Part shown: positions 45,648 through 64,000 of the stretch, one piece after another
Layout: every line of letters begins with the position of its first letter
How positions within the stretch are numbered: the stretch's first letter is position 1
Notes under the pieces: generated by a model
Databases searched by the model: none
Seen by the model: the letters and a program-made list of their open reading frames with translations, nothing else
What the model was told of the DNA's origin: nothing
Source: a virus
Lineage: Duplodnaviria; Caudoviricetes
Virus record (IMG/VR): IMGVR_UViG_3300013936_000015
Location: 64,001-128,000 of that record
Length of the DNA stretch: 64,000 bases
Reading direction: 5' to 3' (one strand)
Position numbers and translations under genes: made by a program

Positions 45648-45929
45648 TTACCATCTATCTAAAGGACATTTTGCATAAGGAAGACGTGTCTTAGCTTGAA
45701 CTCTACAGCCGCATCCTCTCTTAAAACCTTCTTTAGGTGTCTCACTAACTTCTAAAGTTTCTGGATTCATGTATAATTTATAATTACATACACCACCTAA
45801 AGTGTCTTTTAATAAAGGACACTTCTTACATACAGCTAACCTCTTCTAACTAATATCTTCATTTCTACCTAATAATTCATTAATATGCCCTTCGGCAATA
45901 TCCACACTTTGTTTCAATAAATCAATCAT
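45648..45929 (-). CDS. Small Zn-finger protein (93 aa, TAG=Gln)
   Basis: RLAVCKKCPL..GVC..RGCGCRVQAKTR..KCPLDRW. Confidence 0.7.
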
Positions 45930-47674
45930 CAGTATTCTATTTCTTTATATTTTTGTTCACTTCTCTCATGTAATAACTGCTTCTTGTAATAAGCCAGCAT
46001 CCTAATAACCTCTTTCTTTAAATATTGTAATTTAAACTGAACATTCCCACCTTCATGAGGATACCAATTCAATATCAACTCCCCTATCTTAGCATTGGGA
46101 TCTAATTGCTGAACCATCCAAGCATAAGTGGATAATTGAAGTGTATAATGCCAGTAATTGCTATCTTGAATATTATTAAGAGGATATTTCATTGTAGAAA
46201 AAGAATTAGTATTACTGTCAAAGTAGCTCTTCTTTTCTATCTTAGAATTTGTATTATGAGTTACTAATAAAGAATATCCACATAAGTAAGTATTAGAAGG
46301 GCTGTCAACAGATATACATTGAGTAGGAACAACATCCACCTCTTTTATATATTTAATAGTAGTATAATCGTCATTATTAAATACTTGATTATCCTCAGTC
46401 TTAAAAGGATTAAATTGATCTGTGGTAAATATAATTGTACTATATTCGTGTCCCCCATTCTTTATTGTAGATTTACAACCAAGAGAAGCTAATAACTTCT
46501 CAATTTCATGGGCTAAATAAATATAGGTATTAATTACATATCCTGAATAACCAATGTCTCCACAAGAATCCATAATACCTTTTAATAATTCAAGTCTGTC
46601 CTCATAAGAAGATAATATATAATCATCAGGAATAAATTTAGTGTCAGTAATACCAAGAACTTTTAAATCAGAAGAAATATCTACTCCTTCTAAATTATCC
46701 ATTAACCATTTACCAAATATATATGGTTCTATAGGAAGGGTTTTCTTTTCGGTATTTAAAGGCTTAGCATTTAATATTCTAGGAATATTATATTTGTCCT
46801 TTATAGGTAAAGAAGATAAATACCTTTTTAATTGAAGAGTAGTCATTACAGATTCTTTATAACTTCCATCCTCTTGTAAAAAAGATATTAACCACCGATG
46901 ATCAATATCAGCAATAATATACTTTCCATTATCAAACCGAATTTTATAACAAGGATTGTAATGAATATTCGATTTGACAGTAATAGTACAAAGATTACCA
47001 TCCTTGTCAAATACTCTATCACCAATATTTAATTTCTCCATAGTAGACCAACCCTTATTTGTAAGAATAGGAGTATCTAATGGAAGACCTTTGTGATCTA
47101 TAATATGATAGGTTTCTCCCTGCTTCACAAGAACATCTATCTGACCAGCAAGCCTTAATACACCATCCTTGCTTATTCTACTAATTAAATACTCAGGATA
47201 AATACCATTTTCCAAATTTAATTCAGTATTACCTTCCTTACAGATAAATTTACCACCAATACCAAATTTATCTAGTTTACAATTATTTCCCTGCTTATAA
47301 AAAGAATGCTCTAATTCTGAATGAATTTTAGTACCACGAGCACAAGACTCCTCATTAGCTTTCTGCCACTCGTCTAAAATGTCTTGCTGCTTGGCAATAA
47401 TATCATCTTTAGTAAAATCATACTTATCATAGATATTATCTGAAATCTTATGAGACTTCCTCAACTCATAAGATAAAGACTTCCAGTCCTCTTTTGGGAC
47501 AAATTTCTCTAATGCCTTATATATAGACCAGAAATCTTTATCAAATGGTTGAGTAAATCTGTCAATGAGAGTTGTCACAGAAATAAATTTCGCATCAGGA
47601 TTTGTTAAATCCCAATACTTGTGAATGTCCTCTCTAAAAACTACATTGCCATTTTTCTTATCATACATTTCCAT
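45929..47674 (-). CDS. PD-(D/E)XK (Cas4/exonuclease-like) nuclease interrupted by an intein
   Basis: RGTKIH, PEYLI, LAGQIDVL..IIDHK|TN and HYTLQLSTY motifs; TAG-free. Confidence 0.85.
   Translation of the reverse strand: MEMYDKKNGNVVFREDIHKYWDLTNPDAKFISVTTLIDRFTQPFDKDFWSIYKALEKFVPKEDWKSLSYELRKSHKISDNIYDKYDFTKDDIIAKQQDILDEWQKANEESCARGTKIHSELEHSFYKQGNNCKLDKFGIGGKFICKEGNTELNLENGIYPEYLISRISKDGVLRLAGQIDVLVKQGETYHIIDHKGLPLDTPILTNKGWSTMEKLNIGDRVFDKDGNLCTITVKSNIHYNPCYKIRFDNGKYIIADIDHRWLISFLQEDGSYKESVMTTLQLKRYLSSLPIKDKYNIPRILNAKPLNTEKKTLPIEPYIFGKWLMDNLEGVDISSDLKVLGITDTKFIPDDYILSSYEDRLELLKGIMDSCGDIGYSGYVINTYIYLAHEIEKLLASLGCKSTIKNGGHEYSTIIFTTDQFNPFKTEDNQVFNNDDYTTIKYIKEVDVVPTQCISVDSPSNTYLCGYSLLVTHNTNSKIEKKSYFDSNTNSFSTMKYPLNNIQDSNYWHYTLQLSTYAWMVQQLDPNAKIGELILNWYPHEGGNVQFKLQYLKKEVIRMLAYYKKQLLHERSEQKYKEIEY
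46253..47089 (-). mobile_element. Intein (279 aa), class-3-like, with a degenerate LAGLIDADG region
   Basis: GLPLDTPILT block A, ADIDHRW block B, VPTQCISVDSP block F, LVTHN|T block G. Inserted within the nuclease D-x-K|T motif. Confidence 0.85.
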
Positions 47675-57017: not shown

Positions 57018-57209
57018 TAATCTAATTTCTCGTAAATATTCATTATAGTACTACCATTAGGTAATCTAAAATGATGCATGATAATAGAATCGCCAGATCC
57101 TATTTCTTAGATTTAGAAATATCTAAAATCTGTATATCATCTATAGATAGGCTCATCATACATAACCCATCTAAATAGATACCTCATAAACCTTATCTTT
57201 AAATCATAG

Positions 57210-57281
57210 TTAGGGCACCAGGATTTGAACCCAGACTAAGTGGGTTAGAGCCACCTGTGCTGACCATTACACCATACCCCA
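57210..57281 (-). tRNA. Amber-suppressor tRNA, anticodon CUA, Gln-type body
   Basis: TGGGGTATGGTGTAATGGTCAGCACAGGTGGCT-CTA-ACCCACTTAGTCTGGGTTCAAATCCTGGTGCCCTAA folds as a cloverleaf. U1-A72 pair as in tRNA-Gln. CCA not encoded. Confidence 0.92.
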
Positions 57282-61822: not shown

Positions 61823-61865
61823 AGGCTTCATGGTGTATAATGTGGTTCGATTCCACATAAGCCTA
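61823..61865 (+). ncRNA. Anticodon-less tRNA-like element 3
   Basis: aggctt/aagcct stem, atgtgg-TTCGATT-ccacat arm, TGGT linker. Confidence 0.7.
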
Positions 61866-61895
61866 CTGATTATTAACAATTTAAAAGCAAACATT

Positions 61896-62312
61896 ATGAG
61901 AACTGAAATGAAGAAATTAGTGATTGAAAGTCTGAAAAACAGCAAGAAGTTTGTTAACAGACTTTCTATGTACCTCAGCGATGAGGCACTGGAGGCACTT
62001 GTTTGTGGAATGCCCCAAACGGCGAGAATTAAAGATATGAAAACATATCTTGCAAAATACTCCACGAACAATCATGTAATCATAAATGCCGAAGTTGATT
62101 ACGTGAACATTGCTCAGGTATGGGTGAAGGAAGAATACACGAGAATAGTGTATGTTTCCAGTGAAGAAAATAAGAAAAAAATCGAAGCTGGGGAGTACGC
62201 ACTCATCAGTGGAGAGAAATCTGATGAGTATCCTATAAAGGCTACTCAAACATTTCATAGCAGTCGGTCCTTCGATCTGGATGACCCAGAAATAGAGGTC
62301 ATCTATTACTAA
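61896..62312 (+). CDS. Hypothetical early protein
   Basis: ATG after the leader attaacaatttaaaagcaaacatt; terminator downstream. Confidence 0.65.
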   Translation: MRTEMKKLVIESLKNSKKFVNRLSMYLSDEALEALVCGMPQTARIKDMKTYLAKYSTNNHVIINAEVDYVNIAQVWVKEEYTRIVYVSSEENKKKIEAGEYALISGEKSDEYPIKATQTFHSSRSFDLDDPEIEVIYY

Positions 62313-62316
62313 AATA

Positions 62317-62349
62317 AAAGCACTCGGGAGAAATCCCGAGTGTTTTTAT
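62317..62349 (+). terminator. Intrinsic terminator
   Basis: cactcggga-gaaa-tcccgagtg followed by ttttt. Confidence 0.8.
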
Positions 62350-62409
62350 TAATAATACCACTGTTTATAACAATGAAGTATTATGGACGTTGTTATGGTT
62401 TAATAGTTG

Positions 62410-62512
62410 GTTGTGGTTTGATGTAGGAACAAGACGACAAACAACTATTATATTATATATCTTATCTATATTATTAGTTGTGGTTTGATGTAGGAACAAG
62501 ACGACAAACAAC
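62410..62512. CRISPR. Cas-less CRISPR mini-array: two identical 36-nt repeats and one 31-nt spacer
   Basis: Repeat GTTGTGGTTTGATGTAGGAACAAGACGACAAACAAC at 62410-62445 and 62477-62512, with GTTGT/ACAAC complementary ends. Confidence 0.75.
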
Positions 62513-62606
62513 GAAAAGTATTTAAATAGTCAATAAACTAATTATGGATGTTAACCCTAATTTTGAAAAATAATTCAGAAGTATTTTGGATTTAAATATA
62601 ATATCT

Positions 62607-62906
62607 ATGAAAATAAAAAAAGGTGAAATTGTTGAAACTACTGTCAGTAGTATTCAATGTAAAATGCTGATATTATATGTATTCCCTACTCCTACCATCA
62701 TAAAACTTGGTAAATCAGAAGCGGCAGTATATAAATACATAGTCTTCACTAACTCCCAAATATGGCTTGTAAAGAAAATCATCTATAGAAAAAGAAATTC
62801 ACAAAAAGAATCTCCTATATATGATGATGCATATAATACCATGTGGGAAAAAGAAGATACCATCTGTAATAATTGTATTCTACCAGACATATTCATAAAT
62901 ATGTAA
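62607..62906 (+). CDS. Hypothetical protein
   Basis: Open frame only. Confidence 0.4.
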   Translation: MKIKKGEIVETTVSSIQCKMLILYVFPTPTIIKLGKSEAAVYKYIVFTNSQIWLVKKIIYRKRNSQKESPIYDDAYNTMWEKEDTICNNCILPDIFINM

Positions 62907-63728
62907 ATTTGTATAAATTACAATCCTCTAAAATGTGGTATATATAAAAGGTACGCGCGTACATTATATATATAGAGAAAAATAAATTAAAAAACTCTAT
63001 CATGTGAAAAAGTTTTCCCAGAAAACTCAAACACACAAAAAAGTTTTAGGATTTCCAAAATCAAAAAACTCAAATGTGAAAAAATGTTAACACATGAGAA
63101 CTACACATATGTAGGATGCATTAGAATACATTAAAGGTATACAGAGAATTTACATTATATTAAAAAATACAAGGAAAGAATGAAAAGAATATAATAAAAC
63201 ATACTAAAAGAAGACTGAAAAGGCCCGAAAATGAATATAAGACCCCATTTCAAAATGTCAACTTAAAATGCAATAACAGCAAAAAATGACATTTCAAAAT
63301 AAGTAAGACGATAAAAAAAGTATTCAAATAGTGAATAAAATAATAAAAATATACTAACATTGAAAAATGACGACAGCAGAAGATAACATAGAAGGGTGTA
63401 ATGAGGAAAAGAGTAGTACTCTCCCCCCACAAAACCACCTAAAAATCCTCATATAGGTGTTTTTTAGGGTTAGGAAAAATCTTCCCACTTTGTCAAAAAT
63501 TTTTTTTCAAAAATTCGGTAAATTTTATTTTTTTATTTTTCACTATTATGTATTTCTTTTTTTCTTTTATTTTATTTTCATTTAGTTTTCTTTTTCATTT
63601 AAAAAATCCTATTTTTTGATATTATCATTACTTATATTTTGCATTATTGCATTAGTGTATATAATTATTTATATTTAGGGTTATTTACTTGTTTTTTATT
63701 TTTTTTTTGAATTACAAAAATCAGTTAT

Positions 63729-64000
63729 ATGAAGAAATTTGATGTTCGCATTCAGATTGTTTTTTTAAACGAATTGAAGAGCAGTTTTCAGATTTTCACT
63801 AGGGATGAGTTACTGAGTGAGTTTAGGCGTGTTGGTATACCTTGTAATCAAATCTTTTGGAGTGTTTTTCGCAACTCTGGATTGATTATTGAAGTATTAC
63901 CAAATACGTATAAATTCACCAATCCGGGTAAACCGATATATTTTCGTATTTTGGATCGAATTTATCAAAAATATCGTGAAAAAATAGAAATTTACCAACA
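63729..64000 (+). CDS. Hypothetical protein, truncated by the window end
   Basis: MKKFDVRIQIVFLNELK.. open to the end of the window. Confidence 0.6.
   Translation, partial: MKKFDVRIQIVFLNELKSSFQIFTRDELLSEFRRVGIPCNQIFWSVFRNSGLIIEVLPNTYKFTNPGKPIYFRILDRIYQKYREKIEIYQ

Follow-up and report, generated by a model that had tools for sequence, protein, structure and literature searches.

The DNA examined here, hereafter the window, is a 64,000-nt stretch (positions 64,001 to 128,000) of the 136,532-bp tailed-phage record IMGVR_UViG_3300013936_000015. Near its end, two identical 36-nt repeats (62410-62445, leader-proximal, and 62477-62512, both on the plus strand) enclose a 31-nt spacer (62446-62476, plus strand) in which only 2 of 31 positions are G or C, as a sequence-only reading of the window had described. 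The array stands between a gene for a protein of 138-160 aa (61830-62312, plus strand), which has 77 close variants in its cluster, and a gene for a protein of 99-106 aa (62586-62906, plus strand). An intrinsic-terminator-like hairpin with a T-tail (62320-62349, plus strand) closes the upstream gene and is kept in all sister contigs. The hairpin itself (62320-62342; -17.9 kcal/mol, z -6.6) lies ~65 nt 5ʹ of the array, which bears out the earlier placement of the array after a terminator and suggests that the array has its own transcription start. An AT-rich leader of ~60 bp (62350-62409, plus strand) follows and is almost identical across sister phages; the Bacteroidetes promoter element TAnnTTTG is absent from it. 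The leader also gave a weak match to Lak-B megaphages (E 0.7-0.9), dismissed as chance because it lies in unrelated sequence.

This is the sole mini-array-shaped repeat of the carrier record: across its 136,532 bp there is no third copy of the repeat with fewer than 13 mismatches. The spacer, for which the window had offered no exact match, likewise matches no other site in the record with fewer than 8 mismatches. The record carries phage genes, and searches of it (CheckV completeness 76%; sister contigs reach 150-165 kb) found neither Cas9 nor Cas1, in keeping with the initial description of a phage-borne mini-array without cas genes. On the 3ʹ side of the array lies ~820 bp of very AT-rich noncoding DNA (window 62907-63730), which may be the origin or terminus region of the carrier itself. 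Hairpins that contain a tRNA T-loop, GTTCGATTC, recur 5ʹ of early genes (window 61070, 61192 and 61844, and genome position 130179); two of them precede a near-identical leader, and they are possible RNA processing or stability elements.

The carrier is a crAss-like, amber-recoded phage in which TAG is read as glutamine. Long open reading frames cover 32% of the record under translation table 11 and 82% with TAG as Gln, and a Gln-type amber suppressor tRNA with a CUA anticodon (57209-57281, minus strand) is present in all sister contigs spanning the site. The terminase large subunit (TerL) is 25-29% identical to those of Crassvirales, and portal and TerL match crAss-type PHROG families. These proteins, a size of ~150 kb, an early region encoding PolA, ligase and NrdD, and TAG usage in the late module are all features shared with crAss-like phages, and the group is probably Zeta-like. 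Four near-complete relatives of the carrier (TerL 47-60%) have neither the repeat nor a similar mini-array. A TAG-free gene within the recoded region (window 45929-47674, minus strand) encodes a 581-aa protein that has a P-loop ATPase domain and, at its N-terminus, resembles an exonuclease.

An exact 36/36 copy of the repeat is found in a 35-copy bacterial array behind cas9-cas1-cas2 (contigs L128/L131; ERZ808274 NODE_77). A metagenome scan retrieved this host array and one sister phage, the exact repeat having no match in the viral contig set or in GTDB genomes; a relaxed repeat pattern led to a Bacteroidales repeat family with 29-30-nt spacers. None of 1,296 spacers taken from arrays with related repeats in other Bacteroidales matches the carrier or the small phage described below. 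The host locus encodes Cas9 (TIGR01865), a Neisseria-type Cas1 (cas1_NMENI) and Cas2 (NCBIfam), with neither cas4 nor csn2, a gene content that identifies the system as type II-C. The sequence-only reading had likened the repeat to class 2 repeats of Bacteroidota, of type II or VI-B; the class and type II stand, and type VI-B is ruled out since the effector paired with the repeat is Cas9. The RuvC and HNH motifs of Cas9 are present, and the locus looks intact. Cas9 is 1,206 aa long (L131:6388-10008); in one sample the same gene is frameshifted and split into three open reading frames (L133:6457-10008). The neighboring CorA shares 86% identity with its counterpart in Prevotella sp. P5-108 and 84% with the one in Segatella copri, so the host is Prevotella-like, and the repeat has identified a host as had been anticipated.

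Upstream of cas9, on the minus strand at about L131:6210-6297, a tracrRNA anti-repeat has a computed pairing energy of -25.4 kcal/mol with the first 20 nt of the repeat (shuffled controls, -10.3+/-2.7 kcal/mol; best of 500, -23.9). These 20 nt of the second repeat are the predicted crRNA handle. The pairing places the crRNA on the plus strand, and the PAM accordingly 3ʹ of the protospacer.

Sister phages, found through the 77-member cluster of the upstream gene, show that the slot is variable. About 25 sister contigs, ~96% identical, span it and carry 0, 1, 2 or 4 spacers, 18 of them distinct; because sister haplotypes are related, these counts and those of sites and repeats below are not independent. 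Several sisters hold a lone repeat in the slot. The intervening sequence thus varies between sisters and the repeat is linked to cas genes elsewhere, neither of which is expected of a simple duplication. One sister array (L144:2190-2490) has four spacers and four perfect repeats followed by a decayed one, and resembles a captured piece of a host array. A spacer of another sister (L189:779-808) differs at 6 positions from spacer 25 of the host array on L128, and the two may target variants of one element.

The window spacer has a 31/31 match in a small temperate phage (L204:11017-11047, minus strand), and likewise in L207 and L208, three independent contigs in all. The longest match of 300 shuffled window spacers to this phage is 15 nt. 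Since the repeat is exact in a cas9-linked bacterial array and the spacer is matched in full in another phage, the array is not due to chance. In total, 13 of the 18 distinct sister spacers match the small phage, 9 of them exactly, at 9 sites; the other 5 have no known target. Spacer searches of IMG/VR and GenBank phages gave no real target, and the small phage was discovered by following the genes of a 443-bp insert in sister arrays. The host array also holds exact matches to the small phage in 9 of its 40 spacers, and the small phage therefore infects this host.

Protospacers of the phage and host arrays share an A at 3ʹ flank position 8 in 16 of 18 cases (P ~2e-5 after correction), with mostly A or C at position 7. 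The predicted PAM is thus N7A, and the 3ʹ flank of the window protospacer, GGGGTGAA, conforms to it. A different PAM, NRTA, had been guessed from the first six sites and was dropped once further sites were added. Repeat identity, the PAM and captured small-phage DNA together lead us to infer that the carrier shares this host.

The target is a phage of 26.1-26.9 kb with an HK97-type head, a siphovirus tail, a serine integrase and a 280-aa Rep-like protein. It encodes terminase, portal, protease, capsid, tail tube and tape measure, and hence is not a satellite in the sense of an element that lacks virion structural genes. Its head module differs from that of the carrier, and carrier (G000) and small phage have no blastn similarity apart from the 443-bp insert of some sisters. 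Noncoding iteron-like and AT-rich repeats lie upstream of rep, a region that is likely the replication origin; the window protospacer is an AT-rich element beside the iteron-like repeats. The sequence-only reading had thought the spacer promoter- or origin-like; its resemblance to an origin is upheld by this target. The origin block (170-200 bp) is tandemly duplicated in L205, L206 and L211, and missing in L209. A cassette of rep and an adjacent 66-aa gene also occurs in Bacteroidaceae chromosomes with no phage structural genes nearby (G099:C29:78781-79735 and G330:C6:4328-5297).

Like the carrier, the small phage is recoded. Its 18 annotated genes contain 116 in-frame TAG codons, which crowd into the genes for tail, terminase and portal; rep, the integrase gene and the 66-aa gene are free of them. 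Searches for a tRNA came up empty in the 26,140-bp contig, in five human-gut relatives and in a ~26-kb prophage of a Prevotella-genus genome. Relaxed ARAGORN calls were junk, mostly inside genes; non-canonical suppressors may have escaped detection. Nor was an endolysin recognized in the 26,140-bp contig, where a 109-aa protein encoded after a holin-like gene has no usable family or Atlas match. The TAG recoding of both phages, missed in the sequence-only reading, is the most interesting context of the array.

In at least 7 sister contigs (L155:5927-6386; also L149, L156, L185 and L187-L190), a 443-bp piece of the small phage lies between two repeats. It comprises the right part of the origin region, the intact 66-aa gene and rep codons 1-56. 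Its 3ʹ junction falls on a repeat-like stretch in rep, with an A at flank position 8 here too. Assembly artefact was rejected as an explanation for the insert, since the same junctions recur in SPAdes, MEGAHIT and Logan assemblies, in several samples and in three alleles. The insert indicates that the large and small phages met in one cell. In two contigs, L186:9730-10290 and L216:880-2004, the small and the large phage are joined reciprocally through the 443-bp piece, as in assembly chimeras or cointegrates; these are probably mis-joins across the shared segment. The piece contains protospacers of other sisters' spacers. Spacers of phages that carry it fall only outside it, and three spacers of sisters that lack it would match inside, a pattern suggesting that sister phages may also attack each other. 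The piece might additionally act as a decoy or yield a dominant-negative Rep fragment.

Taken together, these observations lead us to propose, with a probability of roughly 0.86, that the type II-C mini-array borrows the host's Cas9 and tracrRNA to destroy the co-resident small phage. The TAG-recoded crAss-like phage would infect a Prevotella-like gut bacterium whose cas9-cas1-cas2 locus has the identical repeat. Leader, repeat, spacer and repeat would be transcribed by the large phage. Host tracrRNA would then bind the 5ʹ half of the downstream repeat, as the computed pairing predicts, and RNase III processing and loading of the crRNA into Cas9 would proceed as in type II systems generally. 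Cas9 would cut the ~26-kb temperate siphophage at its origin and rep, beside an N7A PAM, and so block its replication. Finally, the slot would be renewed with host-acquired or recombined spacers as the polymorphic target site changes, the variation at both sites being consistent with an arms race. The idea that the phage borrows host Cas to attack a competing phage was already present in the sequence-only reading, and the 31/31 match next to an N7A PAM gives it a specific target.

Would Cas9 cut the small phage, or merely bind it? The same targeting could act by blocking, with Cas9 bound at the origin or rep promoter repressing replication without efficient cleavage. A guide of 6% GC, as the extremely AT-rich window spacer provides, may cut poorly, and sites cluster in noncoding DNA of the origin and promoter, where occupancy by itself could suffice. 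Against this, the matches are full-length, the host Cas9 retains both nuclease motifs, and some sister spacers fall in the coding sequence of terL, terS and rep, where binding does less. We regard blocking as improbable.

A 1.4-kb region spanning the origin and rep holds 7 of the 9 phage-array sites and none of the 9 host-array sites (Fisher P=0.001). This bias, not seen in host spacers, speaks against the array being a passive record, filled now and then by host Cas1-Cas2 or by recombination into a captured repeat, mostly from the abundant small phage, and neither used nor selected. Such a record would fit with the small phage also being a main target of the host array, and with the existence of lone-repeat alleles. 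The repeats themselves speak for use. Decay mostly strikes the leader-side repeat, in the half that pairs with tracrRNA: G11 is changed in 11 and G14 in 13 of 16 first repeats, which weakens pairing to -15 kcal/mol; in 19 of 20 repeats downstream of a spacer, G11 and G14 are kept. Selective conservation of this kind is what selection on the type II crRNA handle would be expected to produce. Both window repeats are perfect, consistent with recent acquisition. Moreover, the AT-rich target site has three or more alleles, and these are followed by five phage spacers that share a 3ʹ end, which suggests that a single acquired spacer was updated over time or that selection returned repeatedly to this one site. 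A passive record is, in light of these patterns, quite improbable.

The transcript might instead serve as an RNA anti-CRISPR or decoy that soaks up host Cas9 and tracrRNA and shields the large phage, with the identity of the spacer secondary. None of the 40 host spacers matches the carrier, as such shielding would allow, and alleles with a lone repeat are reminiscent of the solitary units of Racrs (PMC11656645), so that a decoy effect could be a side benefit. As the main role, which the sequence-only reading had entertained, it is very doubtful: a decoy has no need of spacers, 13 of 18 here, that have full-length, PAM-flanked targets in one phage. Least probable of all is repression of host cas9/tracrRNA or another host promoter through partial pairing, another suggestion of that reading, which appeals to an AT-rich, promoter-like spacer and a mechanism known for other viral mini-arrays (10.1101/2023.03.03.530964, 10.1101/2024.10.29.618823), but across four host cas loci every full-length match falls short by 11 or more mismatches, no seed match occurs in the cas9/tracrRNA promoter, 401 Prevotella-genus genomes hold no match at 3 or fewer mismatches, and spacers turn over between sisters.

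If the array indeed directs host Cas9 against the small phage, its effect in natural communities would be partial. Large and small phages are often abundant in the same sample, indicating that suppression is incomplete at the community level. Two samples fit such targeting. The small phage of sample ERZ27300238 has changes, relative to the resident spacer, within the PAM-proximal 20 nt. As an anecdote, in ERZ26859177 the large phage's four spacers miss the small phage, whose coverage of 1,037x is the highest among the ten contigs listed.

What would the large phage gain from attacking a temperate phage? Likely, the small phage is induced by the large phage or lives off it. Plain competition with an inducible prophage would suffice as a motive. 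A more specific possibility, which we put forward tentatively and rate somewhat below even, is that of a small phage living as a genetic-code parasite. With TAG codons locking its late genes, and with no suppressor tRNA and perhaps no endolysin of its own, it would finish its cycle only when a large amber-suppressing phage such as the carrier infects the lysogen, and the array would be the helper's counter-weapon, turning host Cas9 on the parasite's origin.

Virus-borne mini-arrays have been described in SPV1 and SPV2 (Medvedeva et al. 2019, PMC6858448), and those of phages have been reviewed (PMC11656645). The array shares with them a content of one or two spacers, a host-identical repeat, an intergenic position with no cas genes nearby, spacer turnover at a fixed slot, as the other spacers in the same slot of sister phages confirm, and a target in another virus of the same host. 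Unlike known viral mini-arrays, whose targets are mostly related viruses, it is aimed at an unrelated temperate siphophage of about one-sixth the carrier's size; it is also of type II-C and needs host tracrRNA, has origin-focused spacers, and involves amber recoding in both phages. With Racr (PMC10651486) and phage crRNA-like repressors (10.1101/2024.10.29.618823) it has in common a host-repeat-derived phage RNA and no nearby cas genes; it differs from them in its two repeats, its variable, fully matching and PAM-flanked antiviral spacer, and the lack of a host promoter target. In the literature searched, of which coverage was incomplete, no crAss-like phage has been described, as far as we found, whose mini-array turns Cas9 on a prophage, and we met no account of one phage depending on another as helper for its suppressor tRNA.

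The phage ICP1 has its own type I-F CRISPR-Cas and an origin-cutting nuclease, and its opponent PLE is a satellite with no capsid or tail of its own. Their conflict takes place in Vibrio cholerae (PMC7182436, PMC9638900). The present case resembles it in that a large phage would attack a smaller co-resident element, with strong focus on its origin and with variable targets. Whereas ICP1 brings its own effector, the effector here would be borrowed, and the target has a full head and tail and no detectable suppressor tRNA or endolysin.

The small phage and the Garnet clade of temperate, TAG-recoded phages share the run series SRR17470xx, presumably gut metagenomes of wild baboons. By description, the small phage is also like that clade in being a 24-26 kb Prevotella prophage with TAG-rich structural genes and a TAG-free integrase gene (10.1101/2021.08.26.457843). 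Borges et al. reported no phage-borne CRISPR attack on the Garnet clade, suggested that recoding may sense co-infecting phages with suppressor tRNAs, and detected a suppressor tRNA in only 40% of TAG-recoded gut phages (10.1101/2021.08.26.457843).

These data resolve, from sequence alone, a natural triangle of a host with its Cas9, tracrRNA and PAM, a large recoded phage, and a small recoded prophage, and within it a population of spacer alleles that follows target alleles. They would extend viral mini-arrays from conflict between related viruses to attack on an unrelated temperate phage by means of a type II system. A side product is a Cas9 of ~1,206 aa whose predicted PAM, N7A, is very relaxed. 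For TAG-recoded phages without a suppressor tRNA, the array and its target name a phage pair in which the question of how they manage can be asked: a suppressor-bearing phage that aims 13 of 18 spacers at a suppressor-less one is the pattern that a helper-parasite relation would lead one to expect. Parasitism on the genetic code, if true, would define a satellite-like dependence that rests on translation, and would account for the way small recoded phages manage with no tRNA of their own.
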